IMG/VR virus record: IMGVR_UViG_3300014964_000592
Location: 1-64,000 of that record
Strand: one strand, 5' to 3'
DNA: 64,000 nucleotides
Origin: an uncultured virus (IMG/VR IMGVR_UViG_3300014964_000592)
Taxonomy: Duplodnaviria; Heunggongvirae; Uroviricota; Caudoviricetes
In this document: positions 6,304-58,557 of the stretch, one piece after another
Layout: every line of letters begins with the position of its first letter
Numbering within the stretch: position 1 is the first letter of the stretch
Notes under the pieces: model-generated
Seen by the model: only the letters and a program-made list of their open reading frames with translations
The model's database searches: none
Told to the model about the DNA's origin: nothing
Translations under genes and position numbers: made by a program

Positions 6304-6376
6304 CGCGGGTTGGAGCAGTTGGAAGCTCGCCAGTTTAACTTGCTGGAGGTCGTCGGTTCGAGTCCGACACCCGCTA
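6304..6376 (+). tRNA. Initiator (fMet)-like tRNA with AAC (Val) anticodon
   Basis: Cloverleaf: acceptor CGCGGGT/ACCCGCT with C1xU72 mismatch; D stem GAGC/GCTC (A11:U24); anticodon stem CCAGT/GCTGG with loop TT-AAC-TT (AAC at 6337-6339); T arm GTCGG-TTCGAGT-CCGAC; discriminator A73; CCA not encoded. Confidence 0.9.
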
Positions 6377-6404
6377 CAAATAAAATCACTTACAAACAAA
6401 ATCA

Positions 6405-6776: not shown

Positions 6777-6803
6777 TCATTAACCCTTTAACACTATAAG
6801 TGA

Positions 6804-7004
6804 GTTAGACGTAGAATTGATAACAACTATGGCCCCCGTCGGAACATGAACGGTGCCGGTGCCGGTGGCCGACTCGTAGCCCGTCGCACCCCTGCGGGCG
6901 TAGTTGCTGGTCGTAGCCAGCTCGGAAATCGTGAACAGCGTCGCGCTGACCTCCGCGCAGCCTTTGCTGACCAAATCCGCGCCGCTGGTGGAACAACCGG
7001 CTAA
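6804..7004 (+). CDS. Small Arg/Gly-rich protein with putative GTT start (66 aa)
   Basis: An in-frame TGA immediately precedes GTT. Translation: VRRRIDNNYGPRRNMNGAGAGGRLVARRTPAGVVAGRSQLGNREQRRADLRAAFADQIRAAGGTTG. An internal ATG exists at codon 15. Confidence 0.7.
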   Translation, partial: VRRRIDNNYGPRRNMNGAGAGGRLVARRTPAGVVAGRSQLGNREQRRADLRAAFADQIRAAGGTTG

Positions 7005-9229: not shown

Positions 9230-9235
9230 TAGCGA

Positions 9236-9922
9236 GTTAAAAAGCCACGTAAGACAGATTATAACGCGAGAGTCACAAAGGCACTCAAGGGAAAGGGCGT
9301 ACCCCACCTTGAAGAGCCGATGTACCGCGTATCCGCGTCGGCTTTTACAAAGGCTATACGACGCGGCAAGGCATCGCAAGGCAGGAACGGCTGGATGGTT
9401 GACCTGCATAGCAAGAGCGAATACAAGCGGATGCGATGCTTTCTTACCCCGGACGGAAAGACGGGCGTAGCAATCAAGCGCGATGGAGATGTAGTGTCTG
9501 TATTCTCCACAAGCGGAAAACGAGGAGCAATGGCAAAAATCATACCGTTTGCGGTCGCTAATGGCGGTCGCAAGCTGGATTGTTATGCTTTCTCGGATGG
9601 TCGCAGTTCACTTCACAACATGTACGGAAGATTCGGTGCAAAGGCTCGCGGCAAAATGACCTTTGACCCGCAATATAATCCGGTTTTCCAACGCACGGCG
9701 CAGGCTAATCCCGGTATGCGCAGACCCTCTCATGTCGTGGCGATGACGCTGCCGAGCAGTCTTGCCGGCGTTATGCGGGCGTACAATGCGGATAGGAAGA
9801 TTGACCTTGGGCGCGTAAGGTCGTATGACGATTACGAAAAGATGATGGATGACCGAAACGCGCATCTTGCATTACGCGGAAAGTCAAGTGGTGTCAGAGG
9901 CGCACTTGGCGGCGGTAAATAA
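9236..9922 (+). CDS. Basic hypothetical protein with putative GTT start (228 aa)
   Basis: Sequence reads TGA TAG CGA GTT AAA AAG CCA... The GTT is 28 codons upstream of, and in frame with, the ATG at 9320 and lies 7 nt after the previous stop. Confidence 0.7.
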   Translation, partial: VKKPRKTDYNARVTKALKGKGVPHLEEPMYRVSASAFTKAIRRGKASQGRNGWMVDLHSKSEYKRMRCFLTPDGKTGVAIKRDGDVVSVFSTSGKRGAMAKIIPFAVANGGRKLDCYAFSDGRSSLHNMYGRFGAKARGKMTFDPQYNPVFQRTAQANPGMRRPSHVVAMTLPSSLAGVMRAYNADRKIDLGRVRSYDDYEKMMDDRNAHLALRGKSSGVRGALGGGK

Positions 9923-11497: not shown

Positions 11498-12792
11498 TTA
11501 TCAACCATGAGATATATTACCCCCTTTATACTGACAAGGAACATTTTATCATCCTTGTCACGGGCGGTCGTGGCTCCGGTAAATCATTCGGAATCGGCGG
11601 TTTCTTGGAACGCCTATCCTTTGAGCTTAAACGCAAAGGTCTATCCAAAGCGGAATCAGACAAGATTGTGCATAAAATCCTCTATACGCGCTACACCATG
11701 ACCAGTGCGAGCATTTCCATCATTCCCGAATTTTTGGAAAAAATAGAGCTTGATGGCACGACCCGGTATTTCCACACGACCAAAACTGACATCATCAACA
11801 AGATGACCGGTAGCCGGATTATGTTCCGTGGTATCAAAACATCATCCGGCAATCAGACCGCGAAGCTGAAATCCATCCACGGCATCACAACCTTTGTATG
11901 CGACGAGGCCGAGGAGTGGACTTCCGACCGTGAATTTGAAACAATCGCCTTTTCTATTCGTCAGGTTGGAATCCAGAATAGGATTATCATCATTATGAAC
12001 CCGACGGATAGCAACCACTTCATCTATCAGAAATACATCAAGGACACGCATAGGATAGAATACTTTGACGGAGTGCCGGTGCAGATTTCCACGCATCCAC
12101 AAGTGCTTCACATCCACACGACGTACCTTGACAATAAAGAGAACCTTTCGGAAGAATTTATCAGGTCAGCCCAAGAAATGAAAGAGCGCGACCCGGAACG
12201 CTACGGCCACATCTTCATGGGTAGATGGGCAGACGTAGCCGAGGGTGCGGTCTTCAAGAAATGGGGTATCGTCAGCGAGTTTCCAAAGAACTGCAAGCAT
12301 GTGGCTCGCGGTCTGGACTTCGGATATTCCAACGATGTCAGCGCATGTGTAAAATGCGGCGTAGTAGGTAATGACCTATACATCGACGAGCAGATTTTTG
12401 AAACCGGACTACTTTCCAAAGACCTCATAAGGAAATTAAGCGAGGATGACTCGTTTGTCTTCGCCGACAGTGCCGACCCGCGACTGATTGATGAAATCGG
12501 GCTGGGTGGTGTAATCATCTACCCTGTGGCGAAGCCAGCCGGAAGCATCATTGCCGGTATTGAAAAGATGAAATCCTTTGACAACATCTTTGTCACGAAG
12601 CGGTCATTGAACGTGCAGGAAGAATTGCGCAACTATGTGTGGGCAAAAGACAAGGATGGCAACTACATCAACATGCCGGAAGATGCCAACAACCACTCCA
12701 TCGACGCGACCCGGTATTACGTGCTTGGCTGCATCCTCGGCAAGATTCTCAAGCCGAAGAAAGTCAAGAAATCAGATTTAGGAATATTCTAA
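11494..12792 (+). CDS. terL: Terminase large subunit (PBSX-type)
   Basis: Walker A GGRGSGKS; Walker B FVCDEAEE; MNP; nuclease motifs GLDFGYSND and NHSIDATRY. Confidence 0.95.
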   Translation: MIINHEIYYPLYTDKEHFIILVTGGRGSGKSFGIGGFLERLSFELKRKGLSKAESDKIVHKILYTRYTMTSASISIIPEFLEKIELDGTTRYFHTTKTDIINKMTGSRIMFRGIKTSSGNQTAKLKSIHGITTFVCDEAEEWTSDREFETIAFSIRQVGIQNRIIIIMNPTDSNHFIYQKYIKDTHRIEYFDGVPVQISTHPQVLHIHTTYLDNKENLSEEFIRSAQEMKERDPERYGHIFMGRWADVAEGAVFKKWGIVSEFPKNCKHVARGLDFGYSNDVSACVKCGVVGNDLYIDEQIFETGLLSKDLIRKLSEDDSFVFADSADPRLIDEIGLGGVIIYPVAKPAGSIIAGIEKMKSFDNIFVTKRSLNVQEELRNYVWAKDKDGNYINMPEDANNHSIDATRYYVLGCILGKILKPKKVKKSDLGIF

Positions 12793-12803
12793 CAACGCCA
12801 GAT

Positions 12804-14261
12804 ATGAATAACTACTTACAGCAAATCTTAACCTATTTCCGCAACCTCACGCTAAATGCGTCCGGGGTTAGCCGCGACCTGTATCAGCTTTTGCAGGATA
12901 AGGACATCAGCCGCGCATTGGATATGCTCCAGAACCGCGATGATGAAGTTGACCAAGCAATCAAGGAGTATAATCCGCAGACGCATGACGTGATGAAACG
13001 CCCCAACAAATTCCGTAAAGGCGATGACCCCTATATCACGGAAAAGTTGCCACGCACACGCGCCCGCTACATCAACGACATTGAGCTATTCTTCTTGCTT
13101 GGCAACCCTATTGAATGGAAGAAAGAAGAGGGCGACGATGAAGCCTTTTCCATGTTCACGGATTTTCTTGAAGAGCAGCATTTCAACTCGCGCATCCGTC
13201 AGGCGAAGCGACTCGCCGGTGCGGAAACCGAATCAGCCCTTATTGCGCACATCTACCGCGACGATGACACTGGCGAGCGTCGCGTCAAGCTGAATGTATT
13301 GGCGCGTTCCAAAGGCTATCGCCTGCGCCCACTGTTCGACACCATCGGCAACATGACGGCTTTTGCCTACGGATACGTTACGAAACAGGGCGGTCGCAGT
13401 GTTCAGCACTGGGATTTCCAAACGCCCAAAATCCTTGCGTTCTGCCATAAGGCGCAAATCGGATGGGAAGTCGAAATCTATCCCAACCCCACAGGCAAGA
13501 TTAACGTCATCTACTTTCAGCAGCCAAAGGCATGGGATGGCGCGGAAGCCCGCATCAACCGCGAGGAGATGCTTGACAGTAAGACCGGTGACACCAACAA
13601 TTACTTTTCCGACCCTATCGCCGCTGCTACTGCCGATGTCATTCAGACCATGACCGACCCCAACAAGCCCGGCAAGCTCATCCAGCTTACAGGCGAAAAG
13701 TCAAGGTTTGAGTATGTCAACCCGCCGCAGGCATCGCAGACACGCGACGCGGAAAAATCCGACCTTTCAAAGAGTATCCTCTTCGACACCTACACCCCGG
13801 ATTTTGACACCGAGGCTATGCGTGGCTTCGGCACACTTTCCGGCGTAGCCATCCGCAATGCTTTCATTCTTGGCTACATCAAGCGCGACAACCGTAAAGA
13901 AATTTACGATGAACTTGTGGGCCGCTTCCGCAACATCGTTATCGCTATACTCGCATACGAGCATCCCGACAAGAGAGCAGCTCTTGAGGCTCTCAAAATC
14001 AAATTTGAATTTGCGGAACCATTCGCTGAGGACAAGCAGGCAAAGTGGCAGTCCATCGCAAGCCTGTATCAAGCCGGTCTGATTTCGTTGGAAACCGCCG
14101 TGACCATGTTGTCGCTGACCGATGCTCCAGAAGAAGAAATTGCCCGCCTTCTCGCCGCTTCCGCACAGAAACAACAGCAGGGTCAGCAGCCTTCCGCGGA
14201 CAAAGAAGACAATCCCGCGCAACCCCCTGTAAATGTTCCGCGAGAACCTATCTCAGCATAA
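12804..14261 (+). CDS. Portal protein (SPP1 gp6-like)
   Basis: Follows terL; FFLLGNP and LSGVAIR motifs; about 485 aa. Confidence 0.88.
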   Translation: MNNYLQQILTYFRNLTLNASGVSRDLYQLLQDKDISRALDMLQNRDDEVDQAIKEYNPQTHDVMKRPNKFRKGDDPYITEKLPRTRARYINDIELFFLLGNPIEWKKEEGDDEAFSMFTDFLEEQHFNSRIRQAKRLAGAETESALIAHIYRDDDTGERRVKLNVLARSKGYRLRPLFDTIGNMTAFAYGYVTKQGGRSVQHWDFQTPKILAFCHKAQIGWEVEIYPNPTGKINVIYFQQPKAWDGAEARINREEMLDSKTGDTNNYFSDPIAAATADVIQTMTDPNKPGKLIQLTGEKSRFEYVNPPQASQTRDAEKSDLSKSILFDTYTPDFDTEAMRGFGTLSGVAIRNAFILGYIKRDNRKEIYDELVGRFRNIVIAILAYEHPDKRAALEALKIKFEFAEPFAEDKQAKWQSIASLYQAGLISLETAVTMLSLTDAPEEEIARLLAASAQKQQQGQQPSADKEDNPAQPPVNVPREPISA

Positions 14262-15776: not shown

Positions 15777-15833
15777 GTCAAGAGCAAGAAAATCACTAAT
15801 TTTGCAGTACAACTAAACGAGAAAAGTACAATC

Positions 15834-30149: not shown

Positions 30150-30157
30150 GAATCAGA

Positions 30158-31246
30158 GTTAATCAGTCATTTTATTTCGATTACGCAAAGCGTTTCTTCC
30201 CCGGCCTTGTGCTGGCTATCGTAGAACGCCTCAACGAGAAGCGTGCCAATTCCGCTCTCACCTACCTTTACAAAGAAAAACTTCGCCCGCAGTTTTCGCT
30301 TGATGGCCGCTGGGCTTCCATCCTTGCGGAATACACCCGCGTAGCCGCCGACGTTGTGGCACTTGACTCCGAGCTTCCGCTCAAGAGCCGTGACACACTG
30401 GAGGTTGCTTCCGGCACAATTCCCAAAATCGGTATGAAGCTCTACCTGACCGAAAAGCAGATGAAAGACGTTGACTCGATGATTGCGCAGGGTGTTCCCC
30501 TCCAGACCATCATCGACAACATCTTCGCTGATACCCCCCGTTGCATCGAGGGCATCTGGGAGCGCATCGAAGACATCTTCCTTTCGGAGCTTTCGTCGGG
30601 TGTCGGCGTTTCCGAGCGCAACAACGGCACAGGTGTGCGCATCAACATGAATTTCTATGACGACAACCAGTTCGCTGTTTCCAAACTTTGGAGCAACACC
30701 GACGCAACTCCGCTTGACGACATCCAGAAACTTGTTGACAAGTCCATTACCGACGCAAACACCATCATCGACGCATACGCTGACGACACCGCCCTCGGTC
30801 TTCTCTACAAGAACAAGCAGGTGCGTTCACAGTTCGCGTTCAATCAGGGCATCGCCATGACCGGTTCGACCACCGTGCCGGTGCTTGACTTTGCGAAGCT
30901 CCAGCAGATTTTCCTCACCAAGTGGAACATCAATCTGCACCGCGTCGCCCGCCGTGTCAAGACCGAGCTTAACGGCGAAAAGAAAAACCATACCCCGTGG
31001 AAGACCGGAACAATTTCCTTTGTCTGCGATGAAGAGCTTGGCTCACTCGTATGGACTAACGTTGCCGAGGCTTCGCGCCCCGTTGAAGGCGTTGTCTATC
31101 AGACTGCCGACCAGTACATCCTCGCAAAGAAATATTCCAAGACCGACCCCCTCCGCGAGTTTACCGCTTCCGAGGCTATGGTTGTGCCTGTGTTGAACAA
31201 CGTTGACCGCATCTACACGCTCGACACTCAGACAGTTCAGGAATGA
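30158..31246 (+). CDS. Major capsid protein with putative GTT start (362 aa)
   Basis: AADVVALDSELPLKSR, GTIPKIG, ATPLDDI and TDPLREFT motifs. The frame extends 17 codons upstream of the GTG at 30209 to GTT-AAT-CAG (VNQSFYFDYAKRFFPGLV), with no ATG/GTG/TTG back to the in-frame TGA at 30128. Confidence 0.88.
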   Translation, partial: VNQSFYFDYAKRFFPGLVLAIVERLNEKRANSALTYLYKEKLRPQFSLDGRWASILAEYTRVAADVVALDSELPLKSRDTLEVASGTIPKIGMKLYLTEKQMKDVDSMIAQGVPLQTIIDNIFADTPRCIEGIWERIEDIFLSELSSGVGVSERNNGTGVRINMNFYDDNQFAVSKLWSNTDATPLDDIQKLVDKSITDANTIIDAYADDTALGLLYKNKQVRSQFAFNQGIAMTGSTTVPVLDFAKLQQIFLTKWNINLHRVARRVKTELNGEKKNHTPWKTGTISFVCDEELGSLVWTNVAEASRPVEGVVYQTADQYILAKKYSKTDPLREFTASEAMVVPVLNNVDRIYTLDTQTVQE

Positions 31247-32942: not shown

Positions 32943-32967
32943 TTAACCCCTTAACACCCATAAACGA

Positions 32968-33516
32968 GTTACAAACAACGCACCCAAAGTTTGCGCGGTC
33001 GGCATCAAAAAGCTGTACTATGCCGACACCAGCAAGGTAACGGCAGACCTTACCGGCGCATTGCTCGCCGCACTGCTTGCCGACGAAGCCACCAAGGAAG
33101 TCAAGAACATCCATCAGGACACGTGGACTATCGAAGAGAGCGAAGCCTCGCAGGACGGCTATCGCAATCAGCTCACCGGTTCTATCTACCGCATGGGAAC
33201 GAAGACCATGGGCGACGTAACTTTCAACTGGACTATCGGTCAGTACGACTATCCTACCAAGGCTGAGTTCCTCGGTGGTGTCGCTACCGACAAGTCGTGG
33301 AAGCGTCCCCGCGGTGTCGTCGAAATCCACAAAGTCCTCATCGCACTCACCGAAGACAATCAGTATTGCGTTCTGCCCTACGCCAACGTAGCCGGTCGTG
33401 AAGCCAACACCGACGGCGCAGTAGGTCTGGGTATCGTCGGAACGGCAATGGAGCCTACCGACCCCAACATCGCATCCGAATACTGGTTCGACTCTTCCGA
33501 GGTAGTGACCGCGTAA
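32968..33516 (+). CDS. Major tail (tube) protein with putative GTT start (182 aa)
   Basis: GTT ACA AAC...VTNNAPKVCAVGIKKLYYAD...VKNIHQDTWTIEE...FNWTIGQYD. In-frame TAA at 32944 and no canonical start before the TTG at 33061. Confidence 0.82.
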   Translation, partial: VTNNAPKVCAVGIKKLYYADTSKVTADLTGALLAALLADEATKEVKNIHQDTWTIEESEASQDGYRNQLTGSIYRMGTKTMGDVTFNWTIGQYDYPTKAEFLGGVATDKSWKRPRGVVEIHKVLIALTEDNQYCVLPYANVAGREANTDGAVGLGIVGTAMEPTDPNIASEYWFDSSEVVTA

Positions 33517-33603
33517 GGAAAACCGATTCATCTAAAAGTTTGTGAAAGTGAAATGTGGTGCGCCAATGACGTACCCCATTCTTTTCAATAAATCCAAAAT
33601 GAT

Positions 33604-34005
33604 ATGGAAGAAGAAAACAAAGAAAAGAACGACGGTGCGAGAATGGTCGCCAGTGCGATTATAGGGCTTGACTACCGCATCGCCATCGTTAACGACAAGT
33701 CATACGTCATCCAGCCGCCCACAATCGCCAAGTTAGCCGGCGCGACGTATTGGTTATGCGAAAGCGGAACGGGAAGCACGTTAAGGGATATTCTGATGTC
33801 GCTGTCAAAAAGCGAAAATCTTGCAAAGGCATTATCATGGTTCATCCAAGGCAACGATGAACTTGCGGAAGAATTATCCCAAGGCAAGATGCTTGAAATC
33901 GTGGATGGTCTTGAGGCCGCTTTCTCCATGATTGAAGCTGAAAATTTTATGCGGCTATCGGCTTTACGGAAGAGCGCAAGTCGGCTGATAGCAAAACCGA
34001 AATGA
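33604..34005 (+). CDS. Tail assembly chaperone (gpG-like)
   Basis: Follows the tail tube gene; slippery heptamer A-AAT-TTT at 33942-33948. Confidence 0.75.
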   Translation: MEEENKEKNDGARMVASAIIGLDYRIAIVNDKSYVIQPPTIAKLAGATYWLCESGTGSTLRDILMSLSKSENLAKALSWFIQGNDELAEELSQGKMLEIVDGLEAAFSMIEAENFMRLSALRKSASRLIAKPK

Positions 34006-34211
34006 TTGGCAACGAGTGTATGCTCGGCCAAATCGCATCATTTATGGAAGCTCTCTGCCTGTCCTATGACGAGGTAGTCCATAAAATTCCATACCGAAAT
34101 CTGCTAATCATGCAGAAAGACAAGATGCACCCATGCACCGGTGTCAAAATCAGTCATTCCAGCGGTAAAGACATGGCCGCCCGCCGTCGCCAGAATAAGC
34201 GTGACGGTTAA
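33948..34211 (+). CDS. Tail assembly chaperone -1 frame extension (gpT-like)
   Basis: The -1 frame is open from the slippery site into the 34002-34211 ORF (LCLSYDEVVHKIPYRNLLIMQKDK). Confidence 0.7.
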   Translation, partial: YAAIGFTEERKSADSKTEMIGNECMLGQIASFMEALCLSYDEVVHKIPYRNLLIMQKDKMHPCTGVKISHSSGKDMAARRRQNKRDG

Positions 34212-58285: not shown

Positions 58286-58305
58286 CCCCAAATACTGTAT
58301 AACGA

Positions 58306-58557
58306 GTTAAGAAAATCACAAAATGGATTAAGGAAAGCAATCGCTACAAGCATCTCGCAGGGGGCATCGCAATAGGCATGGTCAGCAATACGCCTTATTG
58401 CGCTGCCCTTTGCGGCTGTGGCGTTGCATCCGCACTTGAGCTAAAAGATAAGCTCTGGGGCGGTGAATGGGATTGGATAGACTGGTCGCTGACCGTCGCC
58501 GGTGTCGCCATCGGCTATTCCATCCGAGTAGGCATCACATTACTGATTAAATCCTGA
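58306..58557 (+). CDS. Small membrane protein with putative GTT start (83 aa)
   Basis: Sequence reads TAA CGA GTT AAG AAA...: VKKITKWIKESNRYKHLAGGIAIGM...ELKDKLWGGEWDWIDWSLTVAG. It fills the gap between flanking genes; the first ATG is codon 25. Confidence 0.72.
   Translation, partial: VKKITKWIKESNRYKHLAGGIAIGMVSNTPYCAALCGCGVASALELKDKLWGGEWDWIDWSLTVAGVAIGYSIRVGITLLIKS

Follow-up and report, generated by a model that had tools for sequence, protein, structure and literature searches.

In bacteria, translation starts at AUG, GUG or UUG, which are read by one initiator tRNA and are selected either by Shine-Dalgarno pairing or through a leader that is rich in A and unstructured. The gut-phage DNA analysed here raises the question of whether a virus can supply an initiator of its own for a sense codon, GUU, and of what would tell such starts apart from all other GUU codons. 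The DNA (referred to as the window, 64,000 nucleotides in length) makes up the opening 64 kb of a virus record that is 72 kb long; it resembles the DNA of Bacteroides, Parabacteroides, Phocaeicola and Riemerella phages, and the record probably represents an integrated prophage together with flanking host DNA. Near its left end lies a tRNA gene whose product looks like an initiator, and an invariant two-base prefix in front of the GTT starts mirrors two unusual bases in the anticodon loop of this tRNA.

Body and anticodon loop of the tRNA

The tRNA gene is located on the plus strand at positions 6304-6377 (74 nt), is named tRNA-Val(AAC) by ARAGORN and matches the Rfam family RF00005 with 48.6 bits (gathering score 29), with the pair 1:72 flagged as non-standard. 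Bacterial initiators, which are also substrates of the formylase, are marked by a 1:72 mismatch together with G2:C71, C3:G70, A73 and A11:U24; a third initiator mark lies in the anticodon stem, as three consecutive G:C pairs. In the ARAGORN drawing of the window tRNA, the acceptor end has a C1xU72 mismatch, in agreement with the Rfam flag, and all of the formylation determinants (G2:C71, C3:G70 and the discriminator A73) are found, while the D stem (GAGC/GCTC) contains A11:U24, that is, a purine at 11 and a pyrimidine at 24. The features of an elongator tRNA-Val, a paired 1:72 and a pyrimidine 11 with a purine 24, are thus replaced by C1xU72 and A11:U24. The anticodon stem is composed of C27-G43, C28-G42, A29-U41, G30-C40 and U31.G39, and retains only G30:C40 from the G:C signature (29:41, 30:40 and 31:39), of which related tRNAs with a GAC anticodon (stem CTACT/GGTAG) have no pair and the UAC type has two. 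Judged by its body, the window tRNA looks like an initiator-type tRNA, and formylation would be expected from its determinants.

The initiator tRNAfMet has a CAU anticodon, a CU-CAU-AA loop and three anticodon-stem G:C pairs. The window tRNA shares with it a CGCGGG 5' end and the body marks listed above (1:72 mismatch, G2:C71, C3:G70, A73 and A11:U24), but has AAC in place of CAU, one G:C pair in place of three and UU-AAC-UU in place of CU-CAU-AA. A NAC anticodon and A73 are the identity elements of ValRS. Both are present in the window tRNA (AAC and A73), and this, together with an engineered AAC initiator that reportedly uses Val or fVal to initiate at GUU (bioRxiv 10.64898/2025.12.21.695813), suggests that it would be charged with valine.

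The tRNA is kept in five related records (G001, G003, G004, G005 and G009), in which position 72 is U or C and always mismatched with C1 (C1xC72 in G001, G003 and G009); GAC-type relatives have C1xA72, and a T-stem change among the relatives, from C51-G63 to G51-U63, preserves pairing. A search of the E. coli genome with the window tRNA gave no match, and the best full-length phage matches are annotated as tRNA-Met (83% identity). The tRNA-Met of Erwinia phage phiEa21-4 (L189, 83% identity) was considered as an initiator reference and dropped, since it pairs A1:U72; it has the same CCAGU anticodon-stem strand as the window tRNA, as well as U37, in a UUCAUUA loop.

The anticodon loop, U32 U33 A34 A35 C36 U37 U38, occupies positions 6335-6341 of the plus strand (ARAGORN), is closed by U31.G39 and forms part of TTTAACTTGCT at 6334-6344, which corresponds to tRNA nucleotides 31-41. 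A pyrimidine at position 37 is very unusual in tRNAs; U33, on the other side of the anticodon, is universal and makes the U-turn, and U38 is normally engaged in the 32-38 loop pair. With a pattern describing an initiator-like body and a base other than C at position 34, such tRNAs are found on at least 108 viral contigs. Among the matches listed, 86 of 108 have a UU-NAC-UU loop (UUGACUU on 71 viral contigs, UUAACUU on 13 and UUUACUU on 2), and U32, U33, U37, U38 and U31.G39 are common to nearly all of the AAC, GAC and UAC tRNAs; the U37/U38 and the weak U31.G39 pair to which the original prediction pointed are thus conserved. Under this constant loop, the anticodon-stem strands differ (CCAGU, CUACU, UCACU, UCGGU and others). 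Exceptions among the matches listed are one GAC tRNA with C31-G39 and the tRNA of G014, in which G31-C39 closes a UUGACGA loop. Eight initiator tRNAs with the anticodon CAC, on metagenome contigs (L323-L327 and L332-L334), all have the loop CUCACAA, with A37 A38, and six of the eight have all three G:C pairs; their cognate start is the ordinary GUG, with full complementarity. A valine anticodon by itself therefore does not call for U37 U38. Initiator-like viral tRNAs also occur with the anticodons GUU (UUGUUCA), UAU (CUUAUAA), GCU (UUGCUUU) and UUU, loci with such non-Val anticodons including L196/L235/L292, L204/L234, L199 and L212, which suggests phage starts at AAC, AUA, AGC and possibly AAA.

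Genes starting at GTT and their cognate anticodons

Genes in the window usually start with an ATG close to the preceding stop; five genes, all on the plus strand, depart from this. Nearest to the tRNA is gene E (6802-7004, GTT at 6804, context TGA-GTT-AG), which codes for a 66-aa basic protein and whose start codon is conserved as the cognate of the tRNA. The reality of this open reading frame was doubted at first, a doubt removed by its conservation and by its differences from the copy in L238, which number 7, 2 and 22 at the three codon positions and thus fall mostly on the third. Among the matches listed, 37 loci have gene E at a distance of 422-467 nt downstream of the tRNA, and the protein that it encodes may be functionally tied to the neighbouring tRNA. 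The product is rich in Arg and Gly, with the pattern V-RRIN..GPRRNMNGAG.GGRLVA...SQLG.R.QR (37 loci among L190-L297, among the matches listed), and has neither a Pfam nor a PHROG family; the products of genes A and D and the phrog_14600 protein were likewise without a Pfam family.

Gene A (9234-9922, GTT at 9236, AGCGA-GTT-AAA) codes for a 228-aa protein and has an in-frame stop two codons upstream of the GTT and its first ATG 28 codons downstream; the orthologue in G001, with 41% identity, keeps AGA-GTT-AAG. The major head protein (30156-31246, GTT at 30158, AGA-GTT-AA; phrog_29) aligns with 80 of the 80 orthologues examined from the GTT codon onward; head-gene orthologues with 58% identity have ATG at exactly this codon, and in several closer orthologues the GTT is immediately preceded by an in-frame TGA stop. 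For the structural protein phrog_14600 (32966-33516, GTT at 32968, CGA-GTT-AC), position 4 of the PHROG profile falls on residue 15 of the open frame, whereas no canonical start occurs before codon 38; its relatives have CGA/AGA-GTT-G/A or ATG, the latter standing at or beside the same codon in those that are 58-65% identical. Judged by its location downstream of the head gene, this protein may be tail-tube-like. The small protein phrog_38535 (58304-58557, GTT at 58306, CGA-GTT-AAG) matches its PHROG profile at position 2 with residue 3 of the open frame, its first ATG being codon 25, and the G003 orthologue has AGA-GTT-AAG. Since homology extends upstream of the first canonical starts and orthologues have ATG at the same codon, with upstream stops adding to this, the GTT starts are, on the evidence of these alignments, real. 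Gene callers will truncate or miss genes of this kind, the major head protein included.

Three further places in the window with unusual starts deserve mention. The site at 15777 (TAG-GTC-AAG) was considered as an additional Val start and dropped: an ATG follows 19 codons further along, GTC is not the cognate codon of AAC, and GA is missing. The portal ORF (12582-14261) has its first ATG at codon 74, at 12804 and directly behind the terminase stop, and matches PHROG from residue 63; with a start at the GTG of codon 19, it would share about 150 nt with the terminase gene. The ORFs 33592-34005 and 33942-34211, which lie downstream of the phrog_14600 gene, overlap, and coding signal in the second sets in well ahead of the first ATG; this pair resembles the usual programmed frameshift of tail chaperones more than a Val start.

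On each contig, the start codon matches the anticodon of the tRNA encoded there. In total, 109 sequences were searched (the 108 viral loci listed and the first 12 kb of the window), 37 of which have a gene E homologue that reaches the N-terminus. Among the matches listed, this gene starts with GTC in 27 of 27 contigs with a GAC tRNA and with GTT in 10 of 10 with an AAC tRNA, without exception, although the contigs are related and the counts are not independent events. In G007, the head gene starts TGA-GTA-AAT and the tRNA on the same contig has the anticodon UAC. As the genes are without another start codon, GUU has to be decoded somehow in the P site, and decoding of the GTT, GTC and GTA starts by the phage tRNA is well supported by this covariation.

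The two bases before the start codon

The five start contexts and the loop sequence are as the original prediction had written them, including a C or T at -3 in four of the five. All five conform to N-G-A-GTT-A. GA precedes only 40 of the 798 GTT triplets on the plus strand of the window, and five of the ten plus-strand occurrences of GAGTTA are the GTT starts. As a comparison set, 78 ATG starts were picked from the ORF tiling and not individually validated; in these, GA is found 6 times, against 5/5 at the GTT starts (Fisher p = 1.6e-5), and the corresponding values for single bases are p = 0.005 for A(-1), p = 0.0004 for G(-2) and p = 0.06 for A(+4), all of which overstate the evidence because the contexts are phylogenetically related. 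The ATG starts have T 30, A 25, C 14 and G 9 at -1, G in 14/78 at -2, A 37 and G 25 at -3, and A 41, G 20, C 10 and T 7 at +4. The bases at -2 and -1 are special to the GTT starts and +4 is ordinary start context. In Bacteroidetes, Shine-Dalgarno pairing is reported to be out of use, and nearby bases such as A(-3) to matter (PMC6847099). That the whole context might be chance, or reflect A-rich starts that are general in the host phylum, can be given hardly any credence: A(+4) and A(+5) are indeed common at ATG starts too, and for +4 such an explanation holds, but it is contradicted for -2/-1 by the comparison above and by the relatives.

Across the records compared, 31 distinct Val-start contexts were collected from five gene families. 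Each of the 31 has G(-2) and A(-1), facing U37/U38 of the tRNA, and the prediction that the context would be conserved in relatives was thus borne out at these two positions. By hand count of the 31, position -3 is T 14, C 10, A 7 and G 0, and +4 is A 21, G 8 and C 2; upstream of -3, the sequences differ freely. Of the three bases initially put forward as invariant, A(-1) and G(-2) have therefore stood, whereas A(+4) (21/31, against 41/78 at ATG starts) has not; a pair between A(+4) and U33 finds no support either, as +4 varies between A, G and C much as it does at ATG starts and U33 is present in all tRNAs. The GA is also present at three GTC starts of GAC-type phages, namely two portal-gene variants and one gene for a 377-aa protein. 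The two portal variants show PHROG homology from residue 12, with the first canonical start 45 codons later. Portal copies that are about 83-91% identical (with two at 57-58%) have GCAGA-GTC-A in 3 contigs and ATG in 27, the ATG being preceded by T at -1 and followed by CCA, CTA or ACA, so that portal genes about 90% identical switch codon and context jointly (GCAGA-GTC-AAA versus GCT-ATG-CCA). Both the invariance of GA and its specificity for these starts are shown by the contexts compared.

Outside the five gene families, starts were located by crude codon-usage tiling, and the evidence from other anticodon classes is thin. In G019, an initiator-like tRNA with the anticodon GCU has U37 U38, and the tape-measure gene of this phage starts TGA-AGC, with position 5 of the PHROG profile at residue 5 and no canonical start until 28 codons later; the pairing of GA prefix and UU loop hence extends to a non-Val anticodon. 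In G018, whose tRNA has the anticodon GUU with C37 A38, a candidate start at AAC (CCG-AAC, preceded by AAGGAG at a distance of 8 nt) has a G(-1) that would pair with C37, in one lineage and without homology support; the GCU example is likewise one lineage. A candidate for the UAU type with A37 A38, TAT-ATT-ATA, is weak, and a start search in G016, also of UAU type, gave no ATA candidate. No Val start was identifiable in G014, the Val-type tRNA of which has G37 A38, and L331, with a UAC anticodon and A37 C38, and the contigs with CAC-type tRNAs were too short or uninformative for start mapping. A blind scan of the 108 listed loci for start-like sites was dropped, because shadow ORFs made noise.

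Within genes of the window, in-frame NGA|GTT is found once (6.3 expected), but NGA|GTC (3, 7.7 expected), NGA|GTA (2, 6.0 expected) and NGA|GTG (2, 7.0 expected) are equally rare and GAGTT in any frame is found 31 times (34 expected), which argues against a specific avoidance of GA-GTT. GTT stands immediately before 5 of the 78 ATG starts, as AAGTTATG three times, AGGTTATG and CGGTTATG, none of them with GA (14485, 40692, 49204 and, on the minus strand, 43382 in the window, and 65014 in the genome); these could be tandem starts or chance. The short leaders of three of the GTT starts, at 6777-6803, 32943-32967 and 58286-58305, share TTAACCC(C/T)TTAACAC..ATAA, which is found 4 times in the window (0.9 expected), and a similar motif precedes the integrase ORF of a GAC-type phage (G011, near 1110).

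Possible readers of the prefix, and the genome around them

The explanation that we favour, and to which we assign an even chance of being correct, is that a phage initiator with a valine anticodon starts genes at GUU and that its U37 and U38 read A(-1) and G(-2), in a helix of 5-6 bases. The start signal would then be (C/U/A)-G-A-GUU and not GUU alone: U37 would take A(-1) in an A:U pair and U38 would take G(-2) in a G.U wobble, which would lengthen the codon-anticodon helix from three to five pairs, or to six if C/U(-3) met G39 once U31.G39 had opened. Such extra pairs could pick the true starts among hundreds of GUU codons in a host without Shine-Dalgarno pairing, and might compensate for the lost anticodon-stem G:C pairs that normally hold the initiator in the P site; the loss of these pairs and the gain of the UU loop and GA prefix fit a trade of P-site stabilisation. 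The genes served would be those for the small basic protein, the gene A protein, the major head protein, the structural protein and the small late protein. The host initiator, which reads ATG, has A37, and T is the commonest base at -1 of the ATG starts (30/78); in the Val-start contexts, U37 faces A(-1) in 31/31, so that -1 is complementary to 37. Physical pairing of 37/38 with -1/-2 is what this complementarity would imply, although no informative variant at 37/38 with mapped starts was found.

From this, the extended pairing originally proposed survives in part. A real, specific and conserved context opposite U37/U38 speaks for it, and the suggested pair between C/T(-3) and G39 is open to 24 of the 31 contexts, but the A(-3) of the remaining seven cannot pair with G39, so that a six-pair helix is not general. 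Pairing over 6-8 nt as a rule is not supported, given the same A(-3) and complementarity that is not conserved beyond -3. The 11 of 11 pairs counted at 9231-9241 are arithmetically correct but peculiar to the window: the G001 orthologue of this start reads GATGTAGA-GTT-AAG, and GA-GTT-AA is all that is conserved.

There are precedents for parts of such a reading. In E. coli, tRNAfMet mutants at A37 are reported to favour mRNAs with a complementary -1, U37 going with A or G (Hollerer and Jeschek 2023, PMC10018350, where Esposito 2003 is cited on such extended, quadruplet pairing), a modest statistical effect over many mRNAs; in the phage contexts, by contrast, neither A(-1) nor G(-2) varies, and pairing would take in a second pair, 38:-2, and perhaps a third, 39:-3. 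According to a cryo-EM report, P-site tRNAProL without m1G37 forms 4-5 codon-anticodon pairs (PMC12340085); this indicates that an anticodon loop of normal size can pair with more than three mRNA bases on the ribosome, although tRNAProL is described as an elongator causing frameshift errors, whereas the phage case would concern a start-site signal. The engineered i-tRNA-AAC resembles the window tRNA in combining an initiator body with an AAC anticodon and GUU starts, but is described as man-made, for E. coli, with the anticodon alone changed (bioRxiv 10.64898/2025.12.21.695813); the phage tRNA is natural, with a remodelled loop and stem and a fixed GA. In the full-text literature, with most subscription journals outside coverage, we found no description of natural Val-anticodon initiator tRNAs of phages or of a GA prefix. 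If the loop does read the prefix, this would be the first natural case of pairing beyond the triplet as an obligatory start signal, would explain how GUU starts are told apart from the internal GUU codons and would offer synthetic biology a ready-made design for orthogonal initiation. A wider formulation, which we put forward tentatively and consider somewhat doubtful, is that gut Bacteroidales phages have a natural orthogonal initiation system, in which a Val-anticodon initiator reads Y-G-A-G-U-N via 5-6 pairs (34-38 or 34-39) that replace the three-G:C signature, Shine-Dalgarno pairing and the initiator check, and genes of the head, tail and lysis regions depend on the tRNA.

The prefix might instead be read by something other than the loop, which we regard as fairly unlikely. 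GA would then be a dedicated signal for the ribosome, on the E-site side of the mRNA channel, or for a phage factor, for example the 66-aa basic protein, and U37/U38 would serve another purpose, such as the evasion of anticodon nucleases or modification enzymes. Position -2 lends this some weight, as it is never A (0/31), even though A would pair better with U38 than G does in a G.U wobble; simple pairing with U38 does not predict this, and -2 may thus be read by something else. The small basic protein also accompanies the tRNA in 37 loci among the matches listed, and mutations in the anticodon loop of phage tRNAs have been proposed as an escape from host anticodon nucleases, with VapC, PrrC and colicins named (PMC10264068). 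Such tRNAs are described as having unusual bases beside the anticodon, as here, but the idea as set out there would predict no match in the mRNA context. A reader other than the loop would moreover require two separate explanations for two complementary features, and it has to contend with the UU loop occurring with GA under four anticodons (AAC, GAC, UAC and GCU) and with pairing between 37 and -1 that is reported as experimentally documented (PMC10018350).

Two other accounts fare worse than a reading of the prefix by the tRNA loop. That GA arises merely from stop codons and the close packing of genes, with re-initiation after TGA, is improbable: T(-3) makes TGA in 14 of the 31 contexts, often in frame, and all five starts in the window lie 6-27 nt past the stop of the upstream gene, but the other 17 contexts are CGA or AGA, which are not stops, and, of the 78 ATG starts from the same operons, only 6 are preceded by GA. 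The original prediction had also offered a base-pairing riboregulator, an RNA not used as a tRNA that would bind start regions via its anticodon arm, and this we hold to be very improbable indeed. It could draw on the 11/11 complementarity at 9231-9241, and covariation of anticodon and start codon would be expected of an antisense RNA too; the complementarity, however, is not kept beyond -3, genes without another start codon need GUU decoded in the P site, and the entire tRNA architecture is under selection, with a full cloverleaf that scores 48.6 bits as a tRNA, a T stem that stays paired through its C51-G63 to G51-U63 change and a position 72 that varies between U and C and is still mismatched with C1.

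The relatives of the window are mosaics. G001 and the window share 99.98% identity over 21680-64000 but only about 70-84% over 1-21250, and G003-G005 show the reverse arrangement, with a tRNA region near-identical to that of the window and structural genes at about 90%; these patterns point to recombination between relatives. Outside the window, near the contig end, the genome (C1) carries a tmRNA gene at 68454-68849 on the minus strand, with the tag GENNYALAA.
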